From Minisyncoccia bacterium (GTDB taxonomy: Bacteria > Patescibacteriota > Minisyncoccia > SW-4-49-11): a stretch of 64,000 nt of DNA. The stretch covers positions 1,812 to 65,811 of the forward strand of contig JBIIRM010000002.1 of NCBI GenBank assembly GCA_044341565.1. Direction: 5' to 3'. Every line of letters starts with the position of its first letter. The stretch's first letter is position 1. Shown here one piece after another: positions 22,382 to 63,278 of this stretch. Position numbers and translations under genes: made by a program. The notes under the pieces are model-generated. The model saw only the letters and a program-made list of their open reading frames with translations. It was not told the DNA's origin and searched no databases.

Positions 22382-22410
22382 TTGACAATTATTGATTCAT
22401 ATGCTATTAT
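22382..22410 (+). promoter_or_regulatory. Sigma70-type extended -10 promoter for rpsP
   Basis: TTGACA (22382-22387), 17-nt spacer ending in ATGC, TATTAT (22405-22410). Confidence 0.55.
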
Positions 22411-36758: not shown

Positions 36759-38117
36759 ATGAGTTCTAAAAACAAAAATAATTTCATCTCAAAAATCATA
36801 CAATATAGTAGTATATATGTATTGATATTGGGTTTTATTTTAATTCCTGCATATCCTGTATTAGCTAATTCTAAATTGGAAGACACCAAGAAGAATTTGA
36901 GTACTGAATTGACTAAAATTCAAGATTTAACTGATTCTAAAAAAGAAACTGATGTAAAAGTGAGAACATTGGCTAAAGAATTAGAGTCTCTTGATAATGA
37001 AATTAATTCTTCTCAAAAAAATCTTGATGCTACTAATAAAGATATTAATTCTATACAAACAGAATTAGGTGAAACTCGACAATATATTAGTACTTTGGAG
37101 CAAACAATTGTTGCTCAAAAATCTCTGATTAAGGAATATATTAGTAGTTTATATACTCAAAAAGATGTATCATTATTCGAGGTGGTATTATCTGAAGATC
37201 AATTATCTGAATTATTAGGTTCAGTGCAGAAAACAGGAGTTATGCAAGACTCTATTACTGAATCTATTGGTTTAATTCAAGCCAAAGAAAAAGAAATTGT
37301 ATCAGAAAAACAACATTTATTTGATAAAGAAGAAGAGCTAATTGCATTGAGACAGTCTCAAGAACAGCAAAAGAATTTATTAGAGCAAACTCAATCAGAT
37401 AAAGAAACCTTATTTGCCCAAACTAAAGGGGAGCAATCTCAATATGAAGCTTTATTAAAAGAATCATTTGCAACTAAGCAAAATCTTTTGAATAGTATTA
37501 AAGTATTAGGTGGTTCTGATGGAAGACCAGGAGCTATTTCTCTAGAAGAAGCTTATGCTTTGGCTTCGGCTAATACGGCAAGACTTGGTAATAAAATACG
37601 TCCAGAATATTTAGTCGGTGTGATGAAAACAGAGTCTGGACTTGGAGGTAATGTAGGGAGGTCATTTTATAAAGATTCATTAAGTGGATGTGCTGCACGT
37701 GAAGGGAATACCACAAAATTAAATTATACTCGCGAAGAACAATCTTTTGAAAAAATTACTTCTGCATTAAATTTACCAATTACTCAACCGGTATCTGGAT
37801 GTCCTTATCCTAAATATATTGGAACGGGAGGAGCTATGGGGCCTGCTCAAGTAATGCCTGCAACATGGCTTGGCTATGAAGGAAAATTAAAAGGATTAAA
37901 AGGGTCAGCTGTAAGCCCATGGAGTATTGAAGATGCTATGCTGGCAATGGGAATGATTTTACTTGGTAAAGTGGGGGATCAATCTATTGCAGGTAATGAG
38001 GAATTAGAACGTAAAGCTGCCTTATGTTATCTTGGGGGATGTAATGTTAAGAATATGTGGTATGCAGATACAGTATTAAATGAAGCTACAAGAACCAAAG
38101 AATTACTTGGAAAATAA
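36759..38117 (+). CDS. Secreted coiled-coil + lytic transglycosylase (SLT_2/MltB-like) protein
   Basis: N-terminal TM/signal, a long coiled coil, then VMKTESGLGGN and GGAMGPAQVMPATW motifs. Confidence 0.65.
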   Translation: MSSKNKNNFISKIIQYSSIYVLILGFILIPAYPVLANSKLEDTKKNLSTELTKIQDLTDSKKETDVKVRTLAKELESLDNEINSSQKNLDATNKDINSIQTELGETRQYISTLEQTIVAQKSLIKEYISSLYTQKDVSLFEVVLSEDQLSELLGSVQKTGVMQDSITESIGLIQAKEKEIVSEKQHLFDKEEELIALRQSQEQQKNLLEQTQSDKETLFAQTKGEQSQYEALLKESFATKQNLLNSIKVLGGSDGRPGAISLEEAYALASANTARLGNKIRPEYLVGVMKTESGLGGNVGRSFYKDSLSGCAAREGNTTKLNYTREEQSFEKITSALNLPITQPVSGCPYPKYIGTGGAMGPAQVMPATWLGYEGKLKGLKGSAVSPWSIEDAMLAMGMILLGKVGDQSIAGNEELERKAALCYLGGCNVKNMWYADTVLNEATRTKELLGK

Positions 38118-41802: not shown

Positions 41803-43177
41803 TATAATTATTGGACTTGGGGCTATAAGTTTACTTATATGTATTTTACTTAATGCTCCTGGTATCATATTTGCGGCAGTTATTCTTAGTTGGGTATTTG
41901 TATTCATATTATCTATTTCTTTAGAAGTAGGTTTATTTACTTTGATTTTTTTACGGCCAGCTATAGATATTATTAGCCCTTTTACATTACCTGATTTTCC
42001 TATTATTAATTTGGGATCTACTATTGCTATAATGATAATAGTATTGTCATTCATATATATATATAAACACCGAATAGTAGTATATAATTCACATATCCCT
42101 TTAATGTGGAGTTTAGGACTGATTGTACTTGTATATATTATTTTTAGTTTTACAGGGATTTCATTGTTTGTCGGATTACAGGAAACAGTGAGAGTATTGA
42201 GTTTTATTATGCTCTATTTTGTGGGGTGGATATATGTTTCACATCAAAATAAATTAATGAATATAATGAGAGTTATTATATATGGGAGTATTATTCCACT
42301 ATTCGTTGCATATATTGAATATTTTTCTGGCACAGGATTATATACTAATCCTGGGTTTGAAAATCGTATTGCAGGTACATTTGGACATCCTAATGTACTT
42401 GCGTATTATTCTATTATTATCCTTGCATTAATTGGGAGTATATGGCTGAATAAGAATACTACTATTTCAATAGATGAAAAGAGATTATTAGGAAGTATTG
42501 GCTTATTATATATTATTATTCTTTTGGTTACTTTTACACGAGGTGCCTGGTTTGGGCTTATCATGTTAATTGCCTTAATAGGATTAATTAAATATCCACG
42601 TAAAAGTTTAATTATTACATCAATAGGATTAGGATTTATTGCTTTAGTATTATCTATATATCAGATTTTATCTCCCCCTACTGTTTTAGATTTACCGCCA
42701 CTAACTACTTTACCTGTGATTAATAGAGTATCAGGCTTATTTAATGCCGACCCCAGTGATTCGGTGATATGGAGATTAACTATGTGGACAGATATGTATG
42801 AAAAAGCCTGGGAGTCCCCTATAATAGGTTTTGGTACAGGAAGTTCTCAAATTATGGTTGAGCAAACACGAGGTACATTTAGAGGTTCTCTTGAAGTACA
42901 TAATGATTATATCAAAATATTCCTAGAACAAGGATTGATTGGCCTTATGATATATGGAATATTAATACTTAATATTCTAGGAGTATTATATTATCGCTAT
43001 ATACAGGGTAAAAATATCTATATTTTATATTTAGCATCCTTGATGACGGTGATTTATATAGTGAGTTTTTGGGATAATTTACTTCGTGGAACAGTATTAA
43101 TGTGGATATTATTCCTTTTATTGGGGGCAGTATTACATTATCAGAGTTTAGATAATAAATCAGATACGAGTATATGA
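41783..43177 (+). CDS. O-antigen ligase/polymerase-like (Wzy_C) polytopic membrane protein
   Basis: At least 10 predicted TM helices. TFTRGAWFGLIMLIALIG loop typical of Wzy_C proteins. Confidence 0.65.
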   Translation: MTQISSNIIIGLGAISLLICILLNAPGIIFAAVILSWVFVFILSISLEVGLFTLIFLRPAIDIISPFTLPDFPIINLGSTIAIMIIVLSFIYIYKHRIVVYNSHIPLMWSLGLIVLVYIIFSFTGISLFVGLQETVRVLSFIMLYFVGWIYVSHQNKLMNIMRVIIYGSIIPLFVAYIEYFSGTGLYTNPGFENRIAGTFGHPNVLAYYSIIILALIGSIWLNKNTTISIDEKRLLGSIGLLYIIILLVTFTRGAWFGLIMLIALIGLIKYPRKSLIITSIGLGFIALVLSIYQILSPPTVLDLPPLTTLPVINRVSGLFNADPSDSVIWRLTMWTDMYEKAWESPIIGFGTGSSQIMVEQTRGTFRGSLEVHNDYIKIFLEQGLIGLMIYGILILNILGVLYYRYIQGKNIYILYLASLMTVIYIVSFWDNLLRGTVLMWILFLLLGAVLHYQSLDNKSDTSI

Positions 43178-44238
43178 AAATTTTAGTATTAGGTCGACAA
43201 CATATAGCTAAATCAGAGGATATTATTAAAGGTCTTCAGGATTTGGGACATACTGTACATTATCTCCTTTTCCCTTCCCTCCAATATCCTCAAAATTATT
43301 ATACTACTCATACAGGAAATATATCGACTCTATCATATACATCCAAGATAGCATATTATTGGGGACATTATCATAGTATACGGAAATATATGACATCTCA
43401 TCTTGATACGGATTATGATTATATTTTAGCTATAGATTGGTTTGAGGGATATATTGCTCTTTCACTCCGAGATTATTTTAAGGATATCCCTATAATATAT
43501 TATGCCTATGATTATTATTTTTATTCTAATAGACTTTCATCACGCTATATTATTAACAAAATAGAGGCCTCAGTATATAAGCGGGCAAATATGGTCTGGG
43601 CTTTGAGTTCACAAATTATTATAGAACATGAAAAAAAACATATTAATAAATCTTTGGTATTGACTATACCATTAGGGATTCATACTCAAAAAATTGCTCC
43701 CTATAAACCCGATTCAAGACAAATACTCTTTATGGGTAATTTTAAAGAAGGGCATAATTTACGATTATTGGTAAATGTTTTTGCAAAATTATCTCCAGAC
43801 TATCATCTACATCTTATAGGTAAGGGTAATTTATATCAAGAAATTGAGAAAATAATTCAACCTGCAAGCTCTAATATTACTTTATATGGATTTCAAGATG
43901 AACAGCAAATACAAGAATTAGTAGTGAAGCATCATATTGGTTTTGGAATAGCTTTATATGAGAATACATTAGAAATATCTTGTGCTGATCCAGGGAAAAT
44001 TAAAGATTATCTTTCATTGGGGCTCCCAATTATTACTACTCCATATCCTAGTATAAGTAAGGATATACAAGAATATAATTTAGGATTAGTAATACAAGAT
44101 AATGAAGAAAGTTTATATACAACATTAATTCATATAGATGAAAATAATATGAATAAGTTTGCAAAAAATATTATAAGATACACTCAACAACATAGTTATG
44201 CTAAAATATTAGCTAAAGCTTTATCTCAGAGTAAATGA
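43174..44238 (+). CDS. Glycosyltransferase (GT-B fold, GT4-like)
   Basis: 354 aa. C-terminal half resembles Glycos_transf_1 (FMGNFKEGHN...LGLPIITTP). Confidence 0.5.
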   Translation: MKILVLGRQHIAKSEDIIKGLQDLGHTVHYLLFPSLQYPQNYYTTHTGNISTLSYTSKIAYYWGHYHSIRKYMTSHLDTDYDYILAIDWFEGYIALSLRDYFKDIPIIYYAYDYYFYSNRLSSRYIINKIEASVYKRANMVWALSSQIIIEHEKKHINKSLVLTIPLGIHTQKIAPYKPDSRQILFMGNFKEGHNLRLLVNVFAKLSPDYHLHLIGKGNLYQEIEKIIQPASSNITLYGFQDEQQIQELVVKHHIGFGIALYENTLEISCADPGKIKDYLSLGLPIITTPYPSISKDIQEYNLGLVIQDNEESLYTTLIHIDENNMNKFAKNIIRYTQQHSYAKILAKALSQSK

Positions 44239-44300
44239 TATCTATTGATAAAATGTCATATATATGATAGGGTAGAGATGTCCATCTTTGGTTATTTACC

Positions 44301-44696
44301 ATGAAAAAGCTCTTTCTCCCTTTTGTAACAGCAATTTCAGTTCTATTCCCAATGGCAGCAACAGCTCAATGGTGGGGTGAATCTTTTGAAAGTATTGAAT
44401 ATAATGGGGTGATAATTCGCTCCGATATTCGTCCACGCACTATTATTTGTCCTATTGTGGAATCACAAGGATTACCTTGTGATGGATATCAAGGATTCAA
44501 TGCATCCACCAGGACTCATATTTTTAGAAATAATGGGAATTGGAATAATAATAGAAACTGGAATAATCAGTGGCAAAACCCAGGATGGAATAATAATCAA
44601 CATTGGAGACAGCCTAATTCAGGATGGAATAATAATGGAGGTTGCCTCTTCAAAAAATGGACGCGAGATGGTGGCTTTGCAATCGGGAATTGCTGA
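44301..44696 (+). CDS. Secreted Asn/Trp-rich small protein (island unit 1, host-like AT-rich composition)
   Basis: Signal peptide MKKLFLPFVTAISVLFPMAATAQ. NWNNNRNWNNQWQNPGWNNNQHWRQPNSGWNNNGG low-complexity block, encoded by a recurring TGGAATAATAAT unit. Cys residues flank the block. Confidence 0.7.
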   Translation: MKKLFLPFVTAISVLFPMAATAQWWGESFESIEYNGVIIRSDIRPRTIICPIVESQGLPCDGYQGFNASTRTHIFRNNGNWNNNRNWNNQWQNPGWNNNQHWRQPNSGWNNNGGCLFKKWTRDGGFAIGNC

Positions 44697-44718
44697 TACA
44701 TTATTTTCCAATCTCAAG

Positions 44719-44747
44719 CCGGTAGCAATAGCTGCCGGTATTTTTTT
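44719..44747 (+). terminator. Intrinsic terminator of island unit 1
   Basis: CCGGTAGC-aata-GCTGCCGG (one G.U pair), followed by TATTTTTTT. Confidence 0.65.
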
Positions 44748-44758
44748 GTTTTTATATC

Positions 44759-44787
44759 TTGACAAATAAGATATAATATGCTATAGT
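44759..44787 (+). promoter_or_regulatory. Extended -10 promoter of island unit 2
   Basis: TTGACA (44759-44764), 17-nt spacer ending in ATGC, TATAGT (44782-44787). Confidence 0.6.
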
Positions 44788-44812
44788 CACTAAGTCGTTT
44801 CGTGGATAAACC

Positions 44813-45124
44813 ATGAAAACTCTTACCAAGTTCATCGCCGGCGCTCTGCTGGCAGGCACCACACTTCTGACCGTGGCTCCCGCCACGGCTCAGTCCCTCA
44901 GCGGCAGGGTCGCCGTCGGACCCATCGGGTCCACCACGAGGGCCTGGACCTCGGTCTCCGAAGCTCAGTCCCTGTGTGCCCGCAATGGGTGCTGGGTGAC
45001 CGATGGGGTGGAGGTGTCACCCGGTAATTGGGTACCGAACACTCTGTTCCCGGGGGCGAAATCCCTCAGGGATTCAGCTGGGAACGGCCTGCTCGAGATT
45101 CCTCGAGCGACATCTCCTCGCTGA
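44813..45124 (+). CDS. High-GC secreted small protein, unknown function (island unit 2)
   Basis: 103 aa. Signal peptide MKTLTKFIAGALLAGTTLLTVAPATAQ. GC-rich third codon positions (gcc ggc gct ctg ctg gca ggc acc). Line 44881-44940 counts 44/60 G+C. Confidence 0.7.
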   Translation: MKTLTKFIAGALLAGTTLLTVAPATAQSLSGRVAVGPIGSTTRAWTSVSEAQSLCARNGCWVTDGVEVSPGNWVPNTLFPGAKSLRDSAGNGLLEIPRATSPR

Positions 45125-45150
45125 GGTGTCAGTTCAGTTTAGTTCAATAA

Positions 45151-45176
45151 GCCTCTGCAATGCAGGGGCCTTTTTT
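45151..45176 (+). terminator. Intrinsic terminator of island unit 2
   Basis: GCCTCTGC-aat-GCAGGGGC (one G.U pair), followed by CTTTTTT. Confidence 0.7.
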
Positions 45177-45199
45177 ATATATTGAAATGTTGTCAATAC

Positions 45200-45228
45200 T
45201 TGACTTTTTGGTTTAAATATGCTATTAT
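45200..45228 (+). promoter_or_regulatory. Extended -10 promoter of island unit 3
   Basis: TTGACT (45200-45205), 17-nt spacer ending in ATGC, TATTAT (45223-45228). Confidence 0.6.
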
Positions 45229-45255
45229 AGATCCGTCTTTCATGGGTTTATCCTA

Positions 45256-46254
45256 ATGAAAAAGTTCATTCCCATCTTGCTTGGCTCTGTTTTACTGGCT
45301 TCGGCTGGAAAGGCGGAGACATTGCCTTTGAGGCTCCAGATCAGCACCCCAGATTCCAATCGGGCGGTGAGGGTGATCATAAGTCCCAGTCAAGCGAAAG
45401 CCTCGGCAGGGCTGGTAACAGCTCGTCCTGGTTCCAATCCCTCGGACTGGGCACCTCAGTACAATAGACTGATTAACCAAAAGGCCCTCGGGTCTCGCGG
45501 TCAATCGGGTGCTGGGCTCACAGCAGGTACGCCTCGGCGTTTCTGTCTGGTGCCTTTGTACCAGGAGGTGAAAAATCTCTCTGCGCTCCCTTGTGGAGCT
45601 TATGGGGAGAGTATCAACTTCCGGTCCAATGGACCCCTTGCCTTCAGCCTTATCAGTGTCAAATCTGATGGTGGATGGCAATGGCTCGACAATGGGCCTA
45701 AGGGGGCTGGTACTGGTGGTCTTACTCTTGTAAGTTCACCAGGCTGGGAAGTTGCTGGGTGGGGACATACCTCAAAAGGGTATGTCCCCACCAGCAGGGG
45801 AGTATTCTTTGGCCCCATCTTCACGGGTGGGGACTTGGCTACCTCGAGGATTTTATCCTCGACTCCCGCCTCGGCGGTGAGGGAGCCTATCTGGCGTCTG
45901 CCAGATTCTGGGCTCAGGTTCCCGGCAGTGATCACGGTCAGCAATGATCGTATCACTCTCTCCACCACCCCCATTCCCGGGGCGCAATATTTCTTCCTCC
46001 CTCGGGAGGGCGGTATGTCGGTAGGACGCGAATTCATCGCAATTCAGCCAGGAGTAGCATTCCAAGCTGGAGTTCAGCTGAACTCCTCCGCTACCGATGC
46101 TGGCACCTTTGGTGCCAAGCTTCCCGATGGCAAGATTGCCTGGATTCAATGGGGATCTCGTCCTGATGGACGTGACACCCGGGTCAAGGTGATTAATCAA
46201 GGTGGTCAGCCCTGGGTTCAGCAAGGTTGGAGCTTGGTCCGCGTTCATCGCTGA
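45256..46254 (+). CDS. High-GC secreted protein, unknown function (island unit 3)
   Basis: 332 aa. Signal peptide MKKFIPILLGSVLLASAGKAE. G/P/S/W-rich mature part. Promoter, terminator and signal peptide all support the + strand over the open antisense frames. Confidence 0.75.
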   Translation: MKKFIPILLGSVLLASAGKAETLPLRLQISTPDSNRAVRVIISPSQAKASAGLVTARPGSNPSDWAPQYNRLINQKALGSRGQSGAGLTAGTPRRFCLVPLYQEVKNLSALPCGAYGESINFRSNGPLAFSLISVKSDGGWQWLDNGPKGAGTGGLTLVSSPGWEVAGWGHTSKGYVPTSRGVFFGPIFTGGDLATSRILSSTPASAVREPIWRLPDSGLRFPAVITVSNDRITLSTTPIPGAQYFFLPREGGMSVGREFIAIQPGVAFQAGVQLNSSATDAGTFGAKLPDGKIAWIQWGSRPDGRDTRVKVINQGGQPWVQQGWSLVRVHR

Positions 46255-46271
46255 TCAGACTCCTCATATCA

Positions 46272-46298
46272 GCCCTCACAATTTGTGGGGGCTTTTTT
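46272..46298 (+). terminator. Intrinsic terminator of island unit 3
   Basis: GCCCTCACA-att-TGTGGGGGC (one G.U pair), followed by TTTTTT. Confidence 0.7.
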
Positions 46299-46337
46299 AT
46301 TTCTCTCCAAAAACACTATAATAGATGTTGTTAGCTA

Positions 46338-46366
46338 TTGACAAAATCGTGTTTTTATGCTAGTAT
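46338..46366 (+). promoter_or_regulatory. Extended -10 promoter of island unit 4
   Basis: TTGACA (46338-46343), 17-nt spacer ending in ATGC, TAGTAT (46361-46366). The TTG of the -35 box is what the ORF track used as a start codon. Confidence 0.6.
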
Positions 46367-46394
46367 GCGAGAGTTCTTTACCAGGAGTTTTACG

Positions 46395-47528
46395 ATGAAA
46401 AATCGTAACATCTTGGGGATGTTTGCAATCGTTCTTCCACTACTTGCCCCTATGGGTGTCAAGGCGGAGAATTTGCTCTCATCACCTCAATCGAATATCC
46501 AGGCAGAAATGCCTCGGAGACTCTCAACTCGAGAGCAAGCAGCTGAGCTTCGCGCCATGCGTGAAGCTGCCGAGGCTCGTAATGCTGGAAGTGTTCCGCA
46601 AATGTCACAGACTCCACCTGGACCACCACCGGTTTTGCCGGTAACTCAGGTTGTGACACAACAACCTGTCAATCCTGTGGTTGCAGGACCTGTTGTTACC
46701 CCTTTTCAAAAGGGCGGTGGAGAATCCTCCCTGTTCGGTGGTAATAACACCAATATCAGGGGGGAGGCAGAGTACAGTAGCACTCCCAGCCAGATCAATT
46801 CCAAGGCTGGAGTCACGCTGGCTCCCAAGGGGAAACCTTTCCTGATGCAAGTTACCGGCTATCAAAGCTCGGGAACTTGCCCAGCAGGTCCGGGAGGTAC
46901 TTGTTCCTATGATTCCAGTAAGCTGGATATCTATGGGGCTCTGAGAGGCTGGTCTTCCACTACCGAGTGGAATGCTGGTCCCTTTGTCCGTTTCCAGCAG
47001 AATAATGCTAATGGGACTTGGAAAAGCCCCGATGGTCTTTATTCCGGTGAATGGAAGTCGGATAAGCCTCAGACTGATGTCGGTATCCGAGCCCGGATTC
47101 GTCATCGCCTGGACCCCAAGTCTTCCGCCAATCCTTGGATTGGTGCAGGTGGCGAATACGATTTCGCCAATGGAGGCTATGACGCCTTCGGCGAAGGCGG
47201 TATTCGCCCCGGCAACTCCAAGAATCCCTGGAATCTGTATGTCCAGGGGGGTGTGAATACTGACGGAGGATATTTTTATCCCGAGGTCACCACACCTAAT
47301 CTGGTGGGGGATGCCAATTCGAAGCTGCAGGTCCAGCTTCAGGCAAAGGGAGTTCTTTATGGCCTCGGCCGTGATAACTCCACTAGTCGAGTTGAACTCG
47401 GGGCCCCCATCACCCTGAATCTCAGCCGCAATACGGCTATTCAGGTGGTGCCAGCCTATGTGCTGGGACTCGACTCCAATACCCGCTCAGGGTTTGGGGG
47501 CACAGTAAAGCTCCGCTTCGGCTTCTGA
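46395..47528 (+). CDS. Moderately high-GC secreted protein with outer-membrane beta-barrel hallmarks (island unit 4)
   Basis: Start reassigned to the ATG at 46395, with GGAG 8 nt upstream. Signal peptide MKNRNILGMFAIVLPLLAPMGVKAE, a Pro-rich stretch, then a G/N/Y/W-rich region with alternating-hydrophobic strands. The protein ends in GGTVKLRFGF* (terminal Phe, hydrophobic at -3, -5, -7). Confidence 0.75.
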   Translation: MKNRNILGMFAIVLPLLAPMGVKAENLLSSPQSNIQAEMPRRLSTREQAAELRAMREAAEARNAGSVPQMSQTPPGPPPVLPVTQVVTQQPVNPVVAGPVVTPFQKGGGESSLFGGNNTNIRGEAEYSSTPSQINSKAGVTLAPKGKPFLMQVTGYQSSGTCPAGPGGTCSYDSSKLDIYGALRGWSSTTEWNAGPFVRFQQNNANGTWKSPDGLYSGEWKSDKPQTDVGIRARIRHRLDPKSSANPWIGAGGEYDFANGGYDAFGEGGIRPGNSKNPWNLYVQGGVNTDGGYFYPEVTTPNLVGDANSKLQVQLQAKGVLYGLGRDNSTSRVELGAPITLNLSRNTAIQVVPAYVLGLDSNTRSGFGGTVKLRFGF

Positions 47529-47606
47529 AGTAAAACCAAAAATGATAGCAACTAACCCCTCACGGGGAGCAGTCGCCTTGACCATCTCTGGTTTTATACC
47601 CCTATA

Positions 47607-47640
47607 TCTCCAGCTGCTTGCAGTTGGGGATTTTCATTTT
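47607..47640 (+). terminator. Intrinsic terminator of island unit 4
   Basis: TCTCCAGCTG-cttg-CAGTTGGGGA (two G.U pairs), followed by TTTTCATTTT. Confidence 0.65.
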
Positions 47641-47687
47641 GTAAGAATATAGGCTATAATAGATTTTATATCTGCTCTTTTAGATTC

Positions 47688-47879
47688 ATGAGACGCAACC
47701 CAGTCTTACTGATTATATCTATTTTGGTAGCTGTAATCATTCAGCATAGTATTGCCGAAGAAGATATTATGTCAGAGAATATTCCTCATCAGTCTCAGGT
47801 ACTGCTTAGTATTTTGTCTCTCCTCTCAGGTTTGATTGGAGCTGATATATTTATGACAGGTATTCGACTCATTTGGTAA
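47688..47879 (+). CDS. Small hydrophobic (two-TM) protein, unknown function (island unit 5)
   Basis: 63 aa, MRRNPVLLIISILVAVIIQHS...LLSILSLLSGLIGADIFMTGI. TATAAT at 47655-47660 upstream and a hairpin downstream. By eye its GC looks intermediate between host and island (not counted). Confidence 0.45.
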   Translation: MRRNPVLLIISILVAVIIQHSIAEEDIMSENIPHQSQVLLSILSLLSGLIGADIFMTGIRLIW

Positions 47880-47896
47880 TGCTTCAACTTTAGGTT

Positions 47897-47930
47897 CACT
47901 CTCAATTCGAGGGTGGGCTTTTCTTTATTT
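47897..47930 (+). terminator. Intrinsic terminator of island unit 5
   Basis: CACTCTC-aattc-GAGGGTG (one G.U pair), followed by GGCTTTTCTTTATTT. Confidence 0.55.
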
Positions 47931-47946
47931 CAGTTGTTGAAAACTT

Positions 47947-47975
47947 TTGACATTTGAGTCAAAATATGCTATAAT
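47947..47975 (+). promoter_or_regulatory. Extended -10 promoter of the downstream glycosyltransferase gene
   Basis: TTGACA (47947-47952), 17-nt spacer ending in ATGC, TATAAT (47970-47975). Confidence 0.6.
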
Positions 47976-48006
47976 TTATATTAATTAGATTACTATTAGT
48001 ATTTTC

Positions 48007-49188
48007 ATGAAAATTGCTTTTATAGGTCAAAAAGGTATTCCTGCCTCAGCTGGGGGTGGTGTGGAGAACTATGTTGATAATATTGCAGTGAGACTTGCTC
48101 GACGGAACCATGATATTATTGTTTATACACGTAAATCCTATGCTCCTGAAGGGAATTATAAAGGGGTACAGGTAATTGAAACCCCTTCTATTGCCACCAA
48201 AAGTTTGGATGCTATTACTCATACATTTACTTCTATTTGGAATAGTTTTTTTATCCCAGATTTGGATGTACTTCATATCAATTCAGTGGGCCCCGCCTTA
48301 TTAACTCCATTTGCTCGCCTCGGATTTGCTATCAAATATCTATTTGGACATAGATATACCAAGGTGGTATTTACATTTCATAGTGCTGATTGGTATCATG
48401 GAAAATGGAATCTTTTTGCTAAGTCAATGTTAAAATTAGGGGCTTGGACAGGATGTCATTTTGCTGATGAAGTAGTAACAGTTTCTAAGAGTTTACGCTA
48501 TTTTATATCTCGAGAATTTGATATTAAGGCTACTTATATACCAAATGGTACCGTGTTTAATCATATTAGTTCTGATTCAAAATTAGCCAAATTTGGTCTC
48601 AAAAAACAAGGCTATATTGTATTTATTGCAAGACTAGTTAAACATAAAAATGCTCATATTTTGATACAGGCGTATCAGCAAATGGCTCATAAATATGGGA
48701 AAAAGCTTGTTATTGTGGGAGGACCTTCTTATACCAGAGAATATGAACAATATCTTCATGATTTAGCAGATGGAGATAAAAATATTATATTTACCGGTCA
48801 TCAATTAGGCAGAACATTAAAACAATTATTTGCTAATGCAGCAATATATGTTCTTCCATCATCTTCAGAGGGATTATCTATTTCTCTTTTGGAGGCAGGA
48901 AGTTATGGAATTCCTGTTATTGTATCCGATATTCGCGAAAATCTTGAAATTGTGGGGGATCTTGGGCATATTGCAAAGGTGAATAATATTGCTTCTCTCA
49001 AACATCAATTAGAGCATGTATTGGGGGATTATCGAGGAGCTTTGGAACTTGCGGACATATTACAAGAGGAAATACGGTATCATTATTCTTGGAATCATAT
49101 TATAAAAGCTCTTGAAAATGTATATCAGAGAGACTCTCGTCTATATAGGGGTGCTGGTATTCAGGTTACGGCAGCTTTGAAATATTAA
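48007..49188 (+). CDS. Glycosyltransferase family 4 (GT-B)
   Basis: MKIAFIGQKGIPASAGGGVENYV N-terminus; C-terminal PSSSEGLSISLLEAGSYGIPVIVSD (E-x7-E-type region). Confidence 0.8.
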   Translation: MKIAFIGQKGIPASAGGGVENYVDNIAVRLARRNHDIIVYTRKSYAPEGNYKGVQVIETPSIATKSLDAITHTFTSIWNSFFIPDLDVLHINSVGPALLTPFARLGFAIKYLFGHRYTKVVFTFHSADWYHGKWNLFAKSMLKLGAWTGCHFADEVVTVSKSLRYFISREFDIKATYIPNGTVFNHISSDSKLAKFGLKKQGYIVFIARLVKHKNAHILIQAYQQMAHKYGKKLVIVGGPSYTREYEQYLHDLADGDKNIIFTGHQLGRTLKQLFANAAIYVLPSSSEGLSISLLEAGSYGIPVIVSDIRENLEIVGDLGHIAKVNNIASLKHQLEHVLGDYRGALELADILQEEIRYHYSWNHIIKALENVYQRDSRLYRGAGIQVTAALKY

Positions 49189-55103: not shown

Positions 55104-56174
55104 ATGTTAGGATTAGGAGTAAAAAATTCGTTTGGTATTGATATTGGTACACAAACTATTAAAATTTCGGAAGTTCAAAAACAAGGAGGGAAAATATCCG
55201 TGATTAATTATAGTATTTGGGATGATGATTTAGATAATATTATTCAAGAGAAAAACGGGGAACATATTATTTCTGTATCTCAGATTACCACCATTATACA
55301 AGCTATGCTTAATGCTGCTAAAATGGAAATAAAGGAGGCATATATTGCAATCCCTTCATATTTAGCTTTTTCAGCAGTTGTTCAATTTCCTCTTATGTCA
55401 TTTGAAGAATTGTCTACAGCTGTACCACTTGAAGCAAAACAATATATTCCTGTTCCTTTAACCAGCGTGCAATTAGATTGGATGAATTTAGGGCCTAATA
55501 AGGAAAAAGATAAATTAAATGTATTAGTAATTGCCATTCCTAATAGTGTGGTAAATACGTATATTGAAGTAAGTAAAGCCCTAGGTATTACGATTAAGGG
55601 ATTTGAATTAGATGCTTTCTCTATTATTCGTTCTATTGATTTGCCCAATAGTCAAGTATGTGTTGTAGATATTGGGGCAAGAACCAGTACGGTAAGTATT
55701 GTTAATACAGAAGATCAATTGCAATTAATACAATCATTTGATTTTGGAGGGAATCATATTACGGATAAAATTTCATCTTCTCATAATATATCCAGTATAG
55801 AAGCAGAAAAACTCAAAAAAGATAATGGAATATCTGGTCCTAAGTCAGAAATATCAGCCTTAATACAATCTGGGATTAAGAGCTTTTTTGAAAATGAAGT
55901 ATTGCGTATTATTCACCAATTCCAAGATAATAATGAAGAAAAAATACAAGATATTGTATTGCTTGGTGGCTTTGCTAAAATGGACGGTATTCGAGAATTT
56001 GTTGATTTAGTTATTAATAATCAATTAGGAGTAAGTCAAAAAATTACTATTACTGTTGCAGAACCCTATTCTAATCTGAGCATTAAAGGGGTGAAGGATA
56101 AGGAAGTTCTGCATGCAATTTGGCATGATTTGGTATTGTCAATTGGTATTTCACTTAAAGATTATGTCGAATAA
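55104..56174 (+). CDS. pilM: Type IV pilus assembly ATPase-like protein PilM
   Basis: FGIDIGTQTIKISEV actin-like fold; 356 aa; first gene of the pilus cluster. Confidence 0.8.
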   Translation: MLGLGVKNSFGIDIGTQTIKISEVQKQGGKISVINYSIWDDDLDNIIQEKNGEHIISVSQITTIIQAMLNAAKMEIKEAYIAIPSYLAFSAVVQFPLMSFEELSTAVPLEAKQYIPVPLTSVQLDWMNLGPNKEKDKLNVLVIAIPNSVVNTYIEVSKALGITIKGFELDAFSIIRSIDLPNSQVCVVDIGARTSTVSIVNTEDQLQLIQSFDFGGNHITDKISSSHNISSIEAEKLKKDNGISGPKSEISALIQSGIKSFFENEVLRIIHQFQDNNEEKIQDIVLLGGFAKMDGIREFVDLVINNQLGVSQKITITVAEPYSNLSIKGVKDKEVLHAIWHDLVLSIGISLKDYVE

Positions 56175-56175
56175 T

Positions 56176-56706
56176 ATGGAAAATATTAGCTTTATTCCTA
56201 ATAGACAAAAAGGCTCAGAGGGATATGTGACTATTAAAGAGGAGCATCCTTATCGGGGGTATATTATTGGATTTATATTGACATTAATTATATACATAGG
56301 AGTATTGGGTTCTGTTTATTGGGTTTATATTATAAAGCCTACGAATGAATATAATCAAATTTTAGCAGATTTAAATGAAAGAAATAGTGTATATTATCCA
56401 AAAGATGATTTAGAAAAAACAGTGTATAATGTGAATACATTGATTTCTCAAACATATGATCCAGTTGAAATTATGAAAGAAATTGAAGCAACATATACTA
56501 CTGGGTTTAAAACAAGTTCTTGGGTATATAGTGCACAAAAAAAGACTATTATTCTTTCAGCACAAGCGCTTTCTTTTGATGATGCTAATTCTCAAATATC
56601 TAAGATAAAGGAGGTTAAAGGTGTTATAGATGCTTCTTCCCCAGATATTAGGAAGAATTCTGAGGGTAGTGGAGTTAGTCTTGATATATTGATTAAGTTA
56701 AAGTAG
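56176..56706 (+). CDS. PilN-like pilus assembly membrane protein
   Basis: Single TM (YIIGFILTLIIYIGVLGSVYWVYII) plus a periplasmic-type domain, immediately after pilM. An alternative ATG at 56164 cannot be excluded. Confidence 0.5.
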   Translation: MENISFIPNRQKGSEGYVTIKEEHPYRGYIIGFILTLIIYIGVLGSVYWVYIIKPTNEYNQILADLNERNSVYYPKDDLEKTVYNVNTLISQTYDPVEIMKEIEATYTTGFKTSSWVYSAQKKTIILSAQALSFDDANSQISKIKEVKGVIDASSPDIRKNSEGSGVSLDILIKLK

Positions 56707-56711
56707 ATGAT

Positions 56712-57242
56712 ATGAATCAAAAAACCCTTTTATCCATTTCATTCTGTATTATATTTATTACTTTGATTTGGACAATAACTAATTTTTATACTGATTTTTT
56801 GACAAGTAAATTCTCTGGAGTAAAGGAATTACAGAAAAAAACACAAATTACCCAATCATTTGCTGATCAAAAGTCGCCCTCAGAATTGGCAAAAAGAATA
56901 AATGAATTCACACCAGATTCACTGGATAAGACCGCGATTACAACAGAATTTACACAATTTGCAAGAGAATCTAATATTGAAATAGCTTCCATCTCTGTAG
57001 ATGAGCAGGGTTCACTAATAAAAGATACTAATAACTTAGATACCAATAATACTTCTATTAATACATTAAGACCAGTGAATATTTTATTAAAAATAACTGG
57101 AGGTAGAAGAGAAATATATACTTTTTTACAAAAATTAATACAATCAAAGCGATATATAGGGGTGAATACCGTTAGCTTATCTTTTGCTAAAGGATTAGGT
57201 AATATAGAGGGAGCTATTAATGCAATAACATATTATAAATAA
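56712..57242 (+). CDS. PilO-like pilus assembly membrane protein
   Basis: Single N-terminal TM plus a roughly 140-aa domain. Assigned by position in the pilM-N-O order only. Confidence 0.4.
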   Translation: MNQKTLLSISFCIIFITLIWTITNFYTDFLTSKFSGVKELQKKTQITQSFADQKSPSELAKRINEFTPDSLDKTAITTEFTQFARESNIEIASISVDEQGSLIKDTNNLDTNNTSINTLRPVNILLKITGGRREIYTFLQKLIQSKRYIGVNTVSLSFAKGLGNIEGAINAITYYK

Positions 57243-57244
57243 AT

Positions 57245-57427
57245 ATGAAAAATATATCTCAAATTATTGAAAGGTATCACAAATTCATTATAGTATCAGT
57301 TAGTATTATAGCTGTAGGCTATTTTGGATATCAAATATTTGCTATTATATTAAATCATATATCTGTTGGGGATACCGATATAGTAGCACCTAGCTTTGAT
57401 ACTATTAGTAGTTATTTTAAGTTATAA
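57245..57427 (+). CDS. Small membrane protein in the pilus operon
   Basis: 60 aa with one TM (FIIVSVSIIAVGYFGYQIFAIIL), tightly packed between the pilO-like gene and pilB. Confidence 0.4.
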   Translation: MKNISQIIERYHKFIIVSVSIIAVGYFGYQIFAIILNHISVGDTDIVAPSFDTISSYFKL

Positions 57428-57428
57428 T

Positions 57429-59144
57429 ATGCAATTAGATTTAAAAAAAACATTTGAATTGTTGAAAAATGAATTTCCTGATAAATTTAAGTCAATAGCT
57501 TCTTTTGATACTATAACAGAATCAGAAATTAAAGCCTTTCTCGAGAAAAATTTTACGGAAAAAGAATTAATAACAGTAAATGCTCAAATTTTGGGATTAG
57601 AATTTATAGATTTAGAGAATATTAGTATACCAAAAGAATTATATGATATTTTACCGGTTAATATTATGCAAAGATATACCTTAATTCCTTTTGCACAAGA
57701 AAATAATACTATTTCTATCGCTATTGCTGACCCACAAAATTATACTGCTATACAAGCTCTTAAGTTTATTTTTCAAGAAAAAAAATTATCTTTTGAGTTA
57801 TTGGTCGCAATAGAATCAGATATTAAACGAACTCTCAAAAGAACAGGAACTTTAAAAAATGCAGTTACAGAAAATCTTGAGGAATTTCATCAAAAAAATG
57901 AAGCAGAACAAATACTCCCAGATACCACAGGTATTACAACAGAAAATTTAGAAAGTGCTCCTATTATCAAAATTGTATCTGTTATTATTAGAAATGCCGT
58001 AGAAGGGGGAGCATCAGATATACATATTGAAGGAACTGATGAATCGGTACGGGTAAGATTTCGTGTGGATGGAGTATTACATACTAGTTTGATTTTACCA
58101 AAAGAAGCCTATTCTCCCGTTGTTGCTCGTATTAAAATTTTATCAAATCTCAAAATTGATGAGCAAAGAAAGCCCCAGGATGGAAGATTTTCTATTTTAG
58201 ATAAAGATAAAAAAGTAGATTTTCGTGTATCGACTTTCCCTACCCAATATGGAGAAAAGGTAGTATTGAGAATTTTAGATACTTCGAACGGTATTAGATC
58301 ATTAGAGCAATTAGGATTTATTGGTCCTCGAGTAAACTTGATTCAAGAAGCAATCAAAAAACCATTTGGTATGCTTCTATTAACAGGACCAACGGGATCT
58401 GGTAAATCAACTACAGTTTATACTCTGTTATCACAAATTAATACGGATGATATTAATATTGTGACATTAGAGGATCCAATAGAATACTATTTATCTGGAG
58501 TTAATCAGTCTCAGGTAAAGCCAGAAATAAATTACACCTTTGCTTCTGGACTTAGATCAATTTTGAGGCAGGATCCAGATGTTATTATGGTAGGAGAAAT
58601 CCGAGATGGTGAAACCGCAGGGCTTGCGGTACAATCAGCTTTAACGGGGCATATTGTGTTCTCAACTCTACATACTAATGATGCTCCAGGAGCATTACCT
58701 CGGCTTATTGATATGGGGGTAGAGCCATTTTTGTTATCTGCCTCACTACAAATAGTTATTGCACAGCGATTAGTAAGAAAATTATGTGAGGAATGTAAAC
58801 AAGCAGTTCCCTTAGATGGAAAAGAAAGAGAATATATACAAGAGTCTTTGACTACATTAACTCCCGAATATATCAAAGAAGTATATAATGGTAATTATGA
58901 TACATTATACACGCCTGTGGGCTGTGCCAAATGCTCGGGTGGATTCAAAGGAAGAATGGCAATTTTTGAGGTAGTGGTAATGACAGAGGAATTACAAGCA
59001 ATTGTAGAAAAAAAATTCAATGAAAATGAGGTTTCTGAATATCTTCGAGCCCATGATTATGTTACCCTAAAACAAGATGGTATATTAAAGGTATTGCAGG
59101 GATATCTTTCTCTCCCAGAGTTATTAACAACTATAGAGATATAG
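57429..59144 (+). CDS. pilB: Type IV pilus extension ATPase PilB (GspE family)
   Basis: Start reassigned to the ATG at 57429 (MQLDLKK). T2SSE_N domain, Walker A GPTGSGKSTT, Asp/His boxes, and a tetracysteine motif CEEC...CAKC. Confidence 0.9.
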   Translation: MQLDLKKTFELLKNEFPDKFKSIASFDTITESEIKAFLEKNFTEKELITVNAQILGLEFIDLENISIPKELYDILPVNIMQRYTLIPFAQENNTISIAIADPQNYTAIQALKFIFQEKKLSFELLVAIESDIKRTLKRTGTLKNAVTENLEEFHQKNEAEQILPDTTGITTENLESAPIIKIVSVIIRNAVEGGASDIHIEGTDESVRVRFRVDGVLHTSLILPKEAYSPVVARIKILSNLKIDEQRKPQDGRFSILDKDKKVDFRVSTFPTQYGEKVVLRILDTSNGIRSLEQLGFIGPRVNLIQEAIKKPFGMLLLTGPTGSGKSTTVYTLLSQINTDDINIVTLEDPIEYYLSGVNQSQVKPEINYTFASGLRSILRQDPDVIMVGEIRDGETAGLAVQSALTGHIVFSTLHTNDAPGALPRLIDMGVEPFLLSASLQIVIAQRLVRKLCEECKQAVPLDGKEREYIQESLTTLTPEYIKEVYNGNYDTLYTPVGCAKCSGGFKGRMAIFEVVVMTEELQAIVEKKFNENEVSEYLRAHDYVTLKQDGILKVLQGYLSLPELLTTIEI

Positions 59145-59201
59145 GCAAAATAATAAAGATATGATATTATTAATACAAAATAAGAGTAAATAAACATATA
59201 T

Positions 59202-59582
59202 ATGAAGAATCACATATTATTGATTGAGGATGATAGTTTCATTACACAAATGTATGCTACAAAAATTGATGAATTAGGTTTTAATGTATTTACCGCCTCT
59301 AATCAACCTGAGGTAAAGGATATTCTTGCTAAAAATGGAAAACAAATTAGTTTAATTCTTCTTGACCTTATACTTCCTGATGTGAGTGGATTTGATATAT
59401 TGCAATGGATAAAAAAGCAAGCTAATCTTAAAGATATTCCTGTAGTTGTCTTGAGTAATTTATCTTCTCAGGCTGATATTAATCAAGCTTTTGAGCTTGG
59501 GGCAGTTGATTATATTGTAAAATCAAATTATACTCCTACTGAGGTAATGCGTACGGTACAAAAGTATTTACCAACATCTTAA
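59202..59582 (+). CDS. CheY-like single-domain response regulator
   Basis: ILLIEDD, LILLDLILPDVSG, VVVLSN, DYIVKS. No output domain. Confidence 0.85.
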   Translation: MKNHILLIEDDSFITQMYATKIDELGFNVFTASNQPEVKDILAKNGKQISLILLDLILPDVSGFDILQWIKKQANLKDIPVVVLSNLSSQADINQAFELGAVDYIVKSNYTPTEVMRTVQKYLPTS

Positions 59583-59592
59583 ACACAGATAT

Positions 59593-60666: not shown

Positions 60667-60676
60667 TACATAATAT

Positions 60677-61894: not shown

Positions 61895-61937
61895 TATATA
61901 TATATATGAAATATATACAGAAGGGGGGTGTAAACAA

Positions 61938-62354: not shown

Positions 62355-62445
62355 TTCAAATTACTTTGTATAGATAAGAGATTGTTTAATCTTTTATCTA
62401 TCAAAATAATTGGAATATATTGTGTATAAAGATAAATAGAATAAT

Positions 62446-63276: not shown

Positions 63277-63278
63277 AA

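Follow-up and report, generated by a model that had tools for sequence, protein, structure and literature searches.

Why do GC-rich genes stand in the middle of an envelope-polysaccharide locus of an AT-rich, host-dependent member of the Ca. Saccharibacteria, and where did they come from? The genes were analyzed in a stretch of 64,000 nucleotides (the window), in which the locus has the layout Wzz-Wzy-GT, the site in question, and GT-DUF4012. This context agrees with a sequence-only reading of the same DNA, which had placed the genes inside a cell-envelope glycan locus. Comparison with related genomes showed that the site between the two glycosyltransferase genes is a cassette slot, the contents of which can be full, partial, unrelated, or absent. 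The following features were mapped, with u1 to u5 denoting the slot genes and GT_A and GT_B the bordering glycosyltransferase genes.

43174..44238, plus strand: GT_A, family-4 glycosyltransferase, left border of the slot (Pfam Glyco_trans_1_4, Glycos_transf_1, Glyco_transf_4; GC3 0.16)
44301..44696, plus strand: u1, predicted exported protein of 131 aa, first slot occupant (ORF with signal-peptide-like N-terminus; GC3 0.29)
44718..44739, plus strand: predicted intrinsic terminator after u1, GCCGGTAGCAATAGCTGCCGGT followed by a T-run (conserved in relatives)
44747..44787, plus strand: promoter module of u2, 41 nt, TTGACA-17 nt-TG-n-TATAGT (11/12 consensus matches, extended -10; repeat family D1)
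44813..45124, plus strand: u2, predicted exported protein of 103 aa with two Cys (ORF; coding pattern, dN/dS; GC3 0.70)
45151..45169, plus strand: predicted intrinsic terminator after u2 (conserved in relatives)
45188..45228, plus strand: promoter module of u3, 41 nt, TTGACT-17 nt-TG-n-TATTAT (reference copy of D1; conserved in relatives)
45256..46254, plus strand: u3, predicted exported all-beta protein of 332 aa (homolog clusters, dN/dS, AF2 model; GC3 0.55)
46271..46293, plus strand: predicted intrinsic terminator after u3 (10-bp stem with 6 GC pairs, T-run)
46326..46366, plus strand: predicted promoter module of u4, 41 nt, TTGACA-17 nt-TG-n-TAGTAT (repeat family D1)
46395..47528, plus strand: u4, predicted outer-membrane-type barrel protein of 377 aa (GC3 0.51)
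47606..47631, plus strand: predicted intrinsic terminator after u4
47631-47660: predicted promoter-like site upstream of u5
47688..47879, plus strand: u5, hydrophobic protein of 63 aa with two predicted TM segments (ORF, AT-rich; GC3 0.33)
47892-47920: predicted terminator after u5
47935..47975, plus strand: promoter module of GT_B, 41 nt, TTGACA-17 nt-TG-n-TATAAT (12/12 consensus matches; copy of D1)
48007..49188, plus strand: GT_B, family-4 glycosyltransferase, conserved right border of the slot (Pfam; GC3 0.21)

The gene coordinates of the sequence-only reading were correct, including the start of u4 at 46395. A public 387-aa call for this gene starts at 46365, inside the predicted -10 element that ends at 46366.

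The composition of u2, u3, and u4 is atypical for the genome, including the synonymous sites. GC3 was 0.12–0.30 in every other ORF of 90 aa or more in the window (roughly 60), and the values of u1 and u5 were just slightly higher than background. The GC contents at the three codon positions were 0.58/0.62/0.70 for u2, 0.57/0.55/0.55 for u3, and 0.59/0.51/0.51 for u4 (calculated with the 46365 start). The GC contents at 4-fold sites were 0.69, 0.53, and 0.49, respectively, compared with 0.21–0.27 for the flanks, and thus, as the earlier reading had stated, the shift is more than an effect of amino acid composition. Overall GC was 63% for u2, with up to 69% in 120-nt windows, and 56% for u3. Calculated per kb, the background of the window was 26–39%, and 51–53% was reached at 45–47 kb; no further GC spike was found within the 64 kb. 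The GC-rich ORFs are separated by AT-rich spacers, and the compositional boundaries coincide with the start and stop codons. The three GC-rich genes in AT-rich surroundings and the return of every spacer to AT-rich sequence had thus both been described accurately.

A second assembly, an independent Logan contig from another pipeline, contains the locus with 100% identity. Among uncultured Ca. Saccharibacteria, no fewer than 12 related contigs from different samples carry diverged syntenic versions, with RecG identities of 75–98%. The slot contents varied among genomes whose RecG was 77–80% identical to that of the window: L010 and L011 contain u1 to u4, L013 contains u1, an unrelated GC-rich gene of 122 aa, and u4, and L009 contains three different GC-rich secreted genes. 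The slot of L012 is free of GC-rich DNA and provides the empty junction for which a search in relatives had been suggested. The first position is nearly constant: an ORF screen detected the u1 family (F2) in 11 of 14 slots, and a u1-like gene starting with TTG is present in L012. The position of u5 is variable and is taken by families F6 or F7 in relatives. GT_B was 77–100% identical in all relatives. The GC3 values turned out to be family-specific and stable across lineages (0.66–0.73 for the u2 family F4, 0.52–0.60 for u3, and 0.45–0.58 for u4), although the flanking synonymous sites are saturated among the same lineages.

The spacers behave differently from the ORFs. The 41-nt promoter module is present four times, ahead of u2, u3, u4, and GT_B, and the same promoter form was found at native genes at 22382, 40941 (minus strand), and 53203 (minus strand). 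Transcription of u2 to u4 therefore appears to be driven by host-type sigma-70 promoters with extended -10 elements and to end at intrinsic terminators, in line with the earlier proposal of expression from native signals. The u2 and u3 promoter modules and the u1 and u2 terminators are kept in relatives. The stem of the u1 terminator has acquired compensatory changes among relatives that retain the structure, and the same terminator is found upstream of different cassettes in L013, L021, and L024, so that it and the next promoter stay constant while the ORFs behind them differ. The same u4 promoter module stands ahead of two deeply divergent u4 types (about 30% identity) in L021, L024, and L013. 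Judged from these alignments, the AT-rich spacers represent a conserved native scaffold and the GC-rich ORF bodies the variable part. Simple import of several genes would not produce this pattern of native, conserved spacers and GC boundaries that fall at the ORF ends.

The cassettes encode genuine proteins, and purifying selection acts on them. In diverged pairs, dN/dS was 0.14–0.25 for u2, u3, and u4 (0.17–0.24 for u2 and 0.14–0.25 for u3), compared with 0.05–0.11 for RecG and GT_B, and the cassettes evolve 2–4 times faster than their housekeeping neighbors. Homologs of u2 formed 10 clusters with 62–88% identity, and those of u3 formed 21 clusters with 74–100% identity and a mean column identity of 80%. 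Between L011 (clade B) and the window, dS was 0.64 in u3 and 0.34 in u4, but 1.1–1.6 in the flanks; the low cassette values beside high flank values show that cassettes have been exchanged between clades. Conversely, the flanks of L002 and the window are about 90% identical, while their u4 proteins share 34% identity. Recent synonymous changes leaned from GC to AT, as predicted for amelioration: singleton changes in this direction versus the reverse numbered 20:3 in u3 and 7:0 in u2, whereas u4 was unbiased (6:5), and the ratio was 24:13 in the W/L008 pair. This is a weak test, as few sites could be polarized and saturation of the AT-rich outgroups biases the flank control.

The N-termini of u1 to u4 were inspected for signal peptides. 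In each case a K/R-containing n-region and a hydrophobic core are followed by ATA/Q, ATA/Q, GKA/E, and VKA/E, respectively; that of u4 reads MKNRNILGMFAIVLPLLAPMGVKA/E. They fit the Sec-type signal peptides that had been claimed for the first four units, and signal peptides are conserved among the cassette homologs. The cassette products are therefore probably Sec-exported proteins of the envelope or the host interface, and a role as a host-interaction secretome, as proposed earlier, is plausible. The u1 protein has W- and N-rich repeats, contains Cys, and is encoded with tandem repeats (D2 and D3). The AF2 model of u3 is all-beta, but it is unreliable at a pLDDT of 45. In agreement with the earlier statement that no product belongs to a recognized family, no known family was found for the island proteins in Pfam, NCBIfam, and PHROGs (E limits of 0.1, 0.1, and 0.01), apart from one chance-level NCBIfam match of u5 (E 0.058, 11 bits compared with a cut-off of 995 bits).

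The structure prediction for u4 revealed a feature that the sequence-only reading had missed, an outer-membrane-type beta-barrel fold. The predicted architecture comprises the signal peptide, a short helix, a Pro-rich linker (residues about 25–120), and, at the C-terminal end (residues about 120–377), a barrel with about 14 strands. The linker of about 95 residues is the most variable region of the protein. The barrel is predicted to be closed and antiparallel and is structurally similar to solved outer membrane proteins (OMPs), at 5–12% sequence identity. Most strands have the lipid-facing hydrophobic dyad pattern, with values of +2.4 to +3.0 on one face and −1.7 to −2.9 on the other. The C-terminus, ...TVKLRFGF, has the form of a beta-signal with an aromatic residue at its end. 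Of 35 homologs from both divergent types, 34 terminate with Phe or Leu, and the remaining one has an 11-residue tail beyond the motif. No match to curated OMP families was found in Pfam or NCBIfam, and the u4 profile had no hit among PDB sequences. According to the model, the probable role of u4 is that of a pore in a lipid layer beyond the cell's own membrane. Such a pore is something that a single-membrane bacterium should not need, and Saccharibacteria are described as monoderm (PMC12857230; bioRxiv 10.64898/2026.03.03.709456), as are Patescibacteria in the literature. The type IV pilus cluster at 55–64 kb of the window lacks a secretin gene.

We propose, with a probability of about 0.55, that the locus is a recombination-driven, lineage-specific cassette slot in the envelope-polysaccharide locus of an AT-rich clade of Ca. 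Saccharibacteria. Each cassette would be its own transcription unit of strong, host-type sigma-70 promoter with extended -10, Sec-signal ORF, and intrinsic terminator, and cassettes would pass between lineages by homologous recombination over the shared spacers and flanking genes. Natural transformation is the most likely route of uptake, because Saccharibacteria are naturally competent (PMC12857230). The products would act at the envelope or the host interface, with the u4 barrel on a variable Pro-rich tether. The GC richness would most simply be the legacy of a source outside the AT-rich lineage, be it a diderm or some member of the phylum with a higher GC content; genome GC within the phylum ranges from 32% to 51% (PMC7427843). 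It would have eroded only slowly because the cassette pool would be younger than the clade and repeatedly re-spread. Against a foreign legacy it can be held that import hardly yields GC-rich synonymous sites beside fully native spacers, and that a constant family-specific GC3 is also predicted by selection or biased gene conversion.

These points lead to another account, possible but rather doubtful, in which the cassettes are endemic to the clade and GC richness is actively maintained, either by nucleotide selection, e.g., for mRNA stability or expression, or by GC-biased gene conversion (gBGC) at a site with unusually frequent recombination. The slot demonstrably recombines, the donor family is absent from all searched data, GC3 is stable beside saturated flanks, the boundaries match the ORF ends between native spacers, and the excess of changes from GC to AT is equally predicted by a balance of mutation with selection or gBGC. 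However, the synonymous divergence of u3 within clade A equals that of the flanks, showing that no extra constraint acts on its synonymous sites, and conservation was no higher at 4-fold sites ending in G or C than at those ending in A or T (22 of 33 versus 6 of 12 changed). In addition, u1 and u5 are near background despite the same slot and similar promoters, and the predicted OMP-type fold of u4 points to diderm ancestry. The effects of gBGC reported in bacteria amount to a few percent and not to a shift of GC3 from 20% to 70%. Much less can be said for the original proposal of a recent, private acquisition by this genome from one or more high-GC donors, followed by partial amelioration, which we consider very unlikely. 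The atypical composition at all codon positions and the lack of homologs in known families would fit, but 12 or more related contigs, some with only 75–80% RecG identity, have the same genes at the same site and with the same GC levels, which contradicts a private insertion, as does the conserved native scaffold of promoters and terminators. Neither was a donor found. Run against 1.84 billion representative proteins, the u3 profile retrieved nothing beyond its own cluster and a single distant one, the sole known copy of the latter adjoining the tail of a GT_A-like gene on a 2.8-kb contig, and all u2 and u4 homologs with examined context were in this same slot. Besides the host-type signals, the predicted export of proteins of no known family, and the glycan-locus setting, the foreign synonymous composition, the empty slot of L012, and the lean from GC to AT stand of that proposal, whereas acquisition by this genome and the donor do not. 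The three GC levels do differ, but these data do not discriminate between different donors and unequal amelioration. Hardly any credence can be given to an artefact, i.e., a chimeric assembly or a GC-rich non-coding RNA with chance ORFs. Long chance ORFs do occur on both strands of GC-rich DNA, and gene callers picked minus-strand ORFs in u2 in some relatives. A chimera is contradicted by the identical second assembly and more than 10 diverged syntenic versions, and a structured RNA by the lack of Rfam matches in the island and by a coding pattern of substitutions and indels: u2 changes on the plus strand by indels in multiples of three and at third positions, dN/dS is about 0.2, and signal peptides are conserved.

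A more far-reaching idea, which must be regarded as improbable, is that u4, exported on its Pro-rich tether by a monoderm episymbiont, becomes inserted in the outer membrane of a bacterial host and works there as a parasite-made nutrient channel or attachment pore. The conserved beta-signal may then serve for use of the host BAM machinery, u2, u3, and the genes that replace them would supply co-evolving factors for accessory functions or host specificity, the slot would be a swappable host-range module, and the GC richness would stem from capture from diderm hosts. If true, this clade of Saccharibacteria would parasitize diderm and not actinobacterial hosts.

The proposed cassette slot was compared with known systems. 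Monomeric OMP barrels of about 14 strands are proteins of diderms (OmpG, FadL/TodX, CymA, PorV, BamG), whereas u4 is encoded by a Saccharibacterium, described as monoderm, and differs from them by its N-terminal helix and the Pro-rich tether of about 95 residues. OmpM-type attachment porins (PDB 8bym) also have an N-terminal tether, composed of an SLH domain and a coiled coil ahead of the barrel; u4 gave no SLH match and is tethered by a short helix with a Pro-rich linker, and an outer membrane is not known from the organism. In Saccharibacteria, small proteins with Sec signals are encoded in arrays that adjoin the type IV secretion system (McLean et al. 2020, PMC7427843). They resemble the slot as tandem small hypothetical signal-peptide proteins with a proposed role at the host interface, but they lie beside VirB genes, whereas no T4SS genes were found beside the slot, and they are not known to be atypical in composition or to be transcribed as separate cassettes.

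Integron arrays share with the slot the tandem single-gene cassettes, the strain-variable content, and the fixed site. Integron cassettes are usually promoter-less, whereas every cassette of the slot has its own predicted promoter and terminator, and neither an integrase gene alongside nor attC-like sites between the cassettes were found. Exchange at the slot looks homologous and not site-specific. Patchy presence among close relatives, including an empty site, and atypical composition are shared with genomic islands. However, mobility domains were absent from the slot and its immediate neighborhood, no tRNA lies in the island (the nearest are at 35.8 and 52.6 kb), the promoter modules are the only direct repeats between cassettes and none flank the slot, and homologs nested in another taxon, which would mark a donor of a classical genomic island, were not found in the searched data. 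The absence of integrase, transposase, tRNA, and flanking repeats had already been noted in the sequence-only reading, and PHROG, viral-contig, and plasmid matches for the island were also lacking.

Hypervariable islands in envelope glycan loci are known from O-antigen and capsule loci and from streamlined marine bacteria such as SAR11 and Prochlorococcus. Like the slot, they combine a Wzz/Wzy/glycosyltransferase cluster, variable content, conserved flanks, and atypical composition with replacement by homologous recombination without integrases. Most such islands exceed the genome in AT content and encode sugar-modifying enzymes, whereas the slot is 20–30 points GC-richer, has its compositional boundaries at ORF ends, and consists of separate single-gene units for predicted Sec-exported, non-enzymatic proteins. 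The slot neighbor GT_A, syntenic in other relatives, is itself swapped in some, with an unrelated minus-strand GT in its place in L012, L021-23, and L026.

The average GC content of the window is about 33%, with 1-kb bins of 26–39%. At 45–47 kb it rises to 51–53%, the bin at 47–48 kb has 46%, and 120-nt windows reach up to 69%. The rise lies in the slot, the site between two glycosyltransferase genes, which contains five genes (u1 to u5).

Slot genes and their flanks, with GC at codon positions 1/2/3 or at position 3 only (GC3)
43174–44238: GT_A, upstream glycosyltransferase gene
44301–44696: u1, GC3 0.29, slightly above background
44813–45124: u2, 0.58/0.62/0.70
45256–46254: u3, 0.57/0.55/0.55
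46395–47528: u4, 0.59/0.51/0.51
47688–47879: u5, GC3 0.33, slightly above background
48007–49188: GT_B, downstream glycosyltransferase gene

All of the roughly 60 other window ORFs of at least 90 aa had GC3 values of 0.12–0.30. At 4-fold sites, GC was 0.69 in u2, 0.53 in u3 and 0.49 in u4, and 0.21–0.27 in the flanking genes. The values for codon positions and 4-fold sites of the individual genes show that the shift exceeds an amino-acid effect. The spacers within the slot are back at about 30% GC. The sequence-only reading had claimed GC-rich genes in a low-GC genome, and the 1-kb bins, GC3 and 4-fold-site values bear this out; the sliding-window check that it proposed marked the region as exceptional, with no second comparable GC spike elsewhere within the 64 kb.

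A chimeric assembly was ruled out by diverged syntenic copies and by an independently assembled Logan contig that was 100% identical over 13.6 kb; the locus is also carried by a 75-kb JGI contig. GC-rich islands of AT-rich genomes are often rRNA genes or introns, and for this reason RNA was initially suspected. An rRNA or structured-RNA island was ruled out, as no RNA match fell into the island and the substitutions were of the coding type; a scan with Rfam at gathering thresholds and ARAGORN found only two tRNAs in the window (35.8 and 52.6 kb), neither of them in the island. When the DNA of the u2 region was aligned for six genomes, the indels in u2 were multiples of three and the substitutions mostly affected third positions, showing that u2 is coding on the plus strand. 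In the same alignment, the promoters were conserved and the terminator stems contained compensatory changes. The genes u2, u3 and u4 are functional, under purifying selection and relatively fast-evolving: their dN/dS values (NG86) were 0.14–0.25 in diverged pairs, and the same comparisons yielded 0.05–0.11 for RecG and GT_B and 0.17–0.23 for Wzy and GT_A.

The GC-rich DNA misled public gene calls, which put u2 on the wrong strand and gave u4 an over-extended start. Minus-strand ORFs were called at u2 in three related contigs (L002, 9698–9901(-); L003, 9515–9895(-); L004, 283–603(-)). The public call of u4 from ATG 46365 (387 aa) begins inside the predicted -10 element, and ATG 46395 is preceded by the Shine-Dalgarno sequence AGGAG. 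Contigs like this one could be at risk of loss or breakage by composition-based binning or contamination filters.

Homologs were counted in a collection of 5.8 billion clusters, which contained 21 homolog clusters of u3 (74–100% identity), 39 of u4, falling into two types, and 10 of u2; no u2, u3 or u4 homolog cluster carried a name or a Pfam domain. Likewise, u1–u5 and the alternative cassettes tested had no credible match in Pfam, NCBIfam or PHROGs; the sequence-only reading had recognised no family among the products. Searching PDB with a profile of the u4 alignment, scanning IMG/VR with the u3 and u4 alignments, and tblastn of u4 against plasmids all gave no match. Among 1.84 billion representative proteins, the cluster of u3 itself and a single distant cluster (contig L020) were all that the u3 profile matched. 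When 185,579 species-representative genomes were scanned with the u3 alignment, one locus was found (96% identity); it belongs to an uncultured Candidatus Saccharibacteria MAG and lies on a contig of 299 kb. A relationship between u3 and u4 was rejected, as the HHalign probability was 2.6%.

Metagenomes were scanned with the conserved flanking GT_B, so that relatives were found with or without the island. The synteny Wzz, Wzy, GT, slot, GT_B, DUF4012, RecG was present in every context fetched except L020, a 2.8-kb contig with only the tail of a GT_A-like gene beside the distant u3 homolog. Relatives with genomes of 30–33% GC carry the same spike of 50–65% GC. The contents of the slot differed among genomes of similar distance (RecG 77–80% identical to the window).

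Slot contents in related contigs
L010, L011: u1–u4
L013: u1, an unrelated GC-rich secreted gene (122 aa), u4
L009: u1 and three other GC-rich secreted genes (118, 213, 277 aa)
L012: only a u1-like gene and a 26%-GC spacer

The L012 slot, without remnants of GC-rich genes, is the junction of glycosyltransferase genes lacking them that the sequence-only reading had proposed to look for in relatives. Clustering of all slot ORFs into families led to the following positional scheme.

Occupants of the slot positions
Position 1: u1
Position 2: one of three small, very GC-rich families (F4, the u2 family; F5; F8)
Position 3: u3, F10, or empty
Position 4: u4 in 12 of 14 slots; F11 in L009
Position 5: small TM protein
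Position 6: GT_B

The 277-aa exported-type protein of L009 (8938–9771, 58% GC) carries the repeat APVSAPAPE(L/P) about ten times in tandem, ahead of a C-terminal domain of about 70 aa, and the antisense strand also has long repeat ORFs. The W/N-rich motif (NWNNN...) of u1 is encoded by tandem repeats of 18–22 nt (44529–44646), and Cys is the last residue of the protein; relatives differ in the number of repeats and in the C-terminal half, and unrelated proteins occupy the u1 position in L024 and L006. GT_A is replaced by an unrelated family-4 glycosyltransferase on the opposite strand in L012 (273–1535(-)), L021 (3324–4595(-)) and L026 (4631–5893(-)), and thus the variable region reaches into the glycan genes.

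The AT-rich spacers form a conserved scaffold of predicted promoters and terminators. The window, L013, L021 and L024 share the u1 terminator (CCGGTAGCAATAGCTGCCGG followed by a T-run) and the next promoter, which precede different ORFs. The promoter GATGTTGTTAnCTATTGACAAAAT...TATGCTAGT is found upstream of both u4 types, and a 41-nt promoter module occurs four times in the window, before u2, u3, u4 and GT_B. Five terminator-like sites (hairpin plus T-run) were called, one 3′ of each unit. Native genes elsewhere in the window carry the same promoter form, which characterizes the slot promoters as host-type signals. The genes u3 and u4 also share DNA for the end of the signal peptide, the 23-nt repeat D5 (45303–45325 and 46454–46476, 78% identical), which encodes this end and the cleavage region (GKAETL in u3, VKAENL in u4). 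Among the aligned u4 sequences, N-terminal regions and unrelated barrel types occur in shuffled combinations, which suggests recombination breakpoints directly after the signal peptide.

The cassettes were exchanged between lineages. By RecG and GT_B, the genomes fall into three groups, i.e., clade A (the window, L008, L002, L006), clade B (L009–L013, L021) and L003, and the 4-fold-site identity between groups was 0.29–0.48, which is about saturation at this base composition. Nevertheless, u3 and u4 of L011 from clade B are as near to the window as the clade-A copies, with 4-fold-site identities of 0.64 and 0.74 and dS values of 0.64 and 0.34, respectively, compared to 1.1–1.6 for the flanks. 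Conversely, the flanks of L002 are about 90% identical to the window, but its u4 only 34%. The u4 genes of L024 and L021 are 95% identical, with different u1-type genes. Saccharibacteria are naturally competent via type IV pili and ComEC (PMC12857230), which makes transformation the obvious candidate route; homologous recombination on the shared scaffold would then move the cassettes.

Two explanations of the GC richness were weighed. The genes could be a foreign legacy, or their GC could be maintained, with selection or, at a recombination hotspot, GC-biased gene conversion as the cause. A foreign legacy is favoured at roughly 2 to 1. The composition is foreign at all three codon positions. 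The cassette pool also appears to be younger than the clade split, and the predicted OMP fold of u4 would imply diderm ancestry; both were counted for a foreign origin. The fact that GC-ending 4-fold sites were no better conserved than AT-ending ones was counted likewise, and in clade A the synonymous divergence of u3 equals that of the flanks, so that no special constraint on synonymous sites was seen. The recent synonymous changes in u2 and u3 lean from GC to AT, which is suggestive only: the GC-to-AT:AT-to-GC ratios of synonymous singletons were 20:3 for u3, 7:0 for u2 and an unbiased 6:5 for u4, and 24:13 in the close pair of the window and L008, all from few polarisable sites, and the flank control of the polarisation was distorted by saturated AT-rich outgroups.

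Maintenance survives as the less favoured explanation, with the following evidence on its side. No high-GC donor was visible in the data searched, the borders of GC richness fall at the ORF ends, and GC3 is constant within each family (F4 0.66–0.73; u3 0.52–0.60, with 0.43 in the distant L020 homolog; u4 0.45–0.58). As the sequence-only reading proposed, the three GC levels may stem from several donors or from amelioration that has progressed to different degrees. Genome GC across the phylum ranges from 32% to 51% (PMC7427843), and thus a GC-richer Saccharibacterium with a homologous slot could be the donor of a foreign legacy. The ORF-precise GC contrast offers a clean natural test of amelioration versus selection or biased gene conversion in a highly AT-biased genome.

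The most important item of the locus is the predicted OMP-type beta-barrel of u4, with about 14 strands. The signal peptide is followed by a short helix, a Pro-rich linker and the barrel, in which most strands have a hydrophobic face alternating with a polar face. The last strand is T-V-K-L-R-F-G-F, and the last residue was Phe or Leu in 34 of 35 homologs of both types (about 30% identity), with a short tail past the motif in the remaining one. Column conservation was lowest in the N-terminal parts (0.43–0.46) and 0.6–0.96 across the barrel. Hypervariable extracellular loops, as expected for such a barrel, were not found in u4; instead, the variability is located in the N-terminal linker, and the barrel changes by swaps between types. 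The u3 protein is predicted to be all-beta, in an unreliable model (pLDDT 45).

Patescibacteria, including Saccharibacteria, are described as monoderm (PMC12857230; bioRxiv 10.64898/2026.03.03.709456), so that a barrel of the OMP type whose beta-signal is conserved would not be expected there. The protein could possibly insert into a host membrane, the clade might have an unrecognised outer lipid layer, u4 might be a domesticated import put to a different use, or the barrel model might be wrong. A parasite-made pore delivered into the outer membrane of the host is improbable, but would be of very high interest. If the barrel is real, it could mean an unrecognised outer lipid layer in some Saccharibacteria or a pore in the membrane of another cell, and either outcome would alter views of the envelope biology of episymbionts and of nutrient theft.

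The closest known kind of locus is the hypervariable, recombination-driven island in envelope-glycan loci. In contrast to those AT-rich islands, the slot is GC-rich; its cassettes for exported proteins are transcribed separately and have composition borders that coincide with the ORF ends, and one of them encodes a predicted porin-like barrel in a phylum described as monoderm. A classical island associated with an integrase or a tRNA was ruled out by tRNA, domain and repeat searches, an integron by domain and repeat searches of the slot, and a phage remnant by the lack of PHROGs and IMG/VR matches. Arrays of small proteins with Sec signals are known in Saccharibacteria beside the T4SS, and the available text of the source does not describe them as compositionally atypical (PMC7427843). 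Literature searches found neither GC-rich cassettes nor OMP-like barrels described for Saccharibacteria, which is weak evidence because the literature coverage was incomplete and many subscription journals lie outside it. CPR bacteria, Saccharibacteria included, need bacterial hosts, and few of the molecules at the surface of contact have been identified. The locus provides a compact, clade-wide set of candidates that evolve fast, are laterally exchanged and are predicted to be exported, each with a strong promoter.

Several further observations were made in the window. The closest relative, L008 (97% DNA identity), is a recombination mosaic with respect to window positions 35261–56000, with dS values of 0.00 for Wzy, u1 and GT_B, 0.02–0.06 for u2, u4, GT_A and DUF4012, 0.11–0.12 for u3 and RecG, and 0.41 for RF1. 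Besides GT1/GT4 domains, GT_B matches PF20706 'GT4-conflict' (family-4 glycosyltransferase in conflict systems; E 1e-10); this match overlaps the general glycosyltransferase domains and may mean nothing specific. A 452-aa protein without a significant Pfam match, 79–93% identical in relatives, is encoded at 36759–38117, flanked by the genes for ribosomal protein L25 and PrmC/RF1. The type IV pilus cluster at 55104–63764 is complete except for the absence of a secretin gene; it follows the slot at a distance of 7 kb, and its synteny is kept in relatives.

Gene order in the type IV pilus cluster
Start: PilM, two small unannotated ORFs, PilB (T2SSE with MshEN)
Middle: stand-alone response-regulator receiver between PilB and PilT
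End: PilT, PilC, pilin, prepilin peptidase, second pilin
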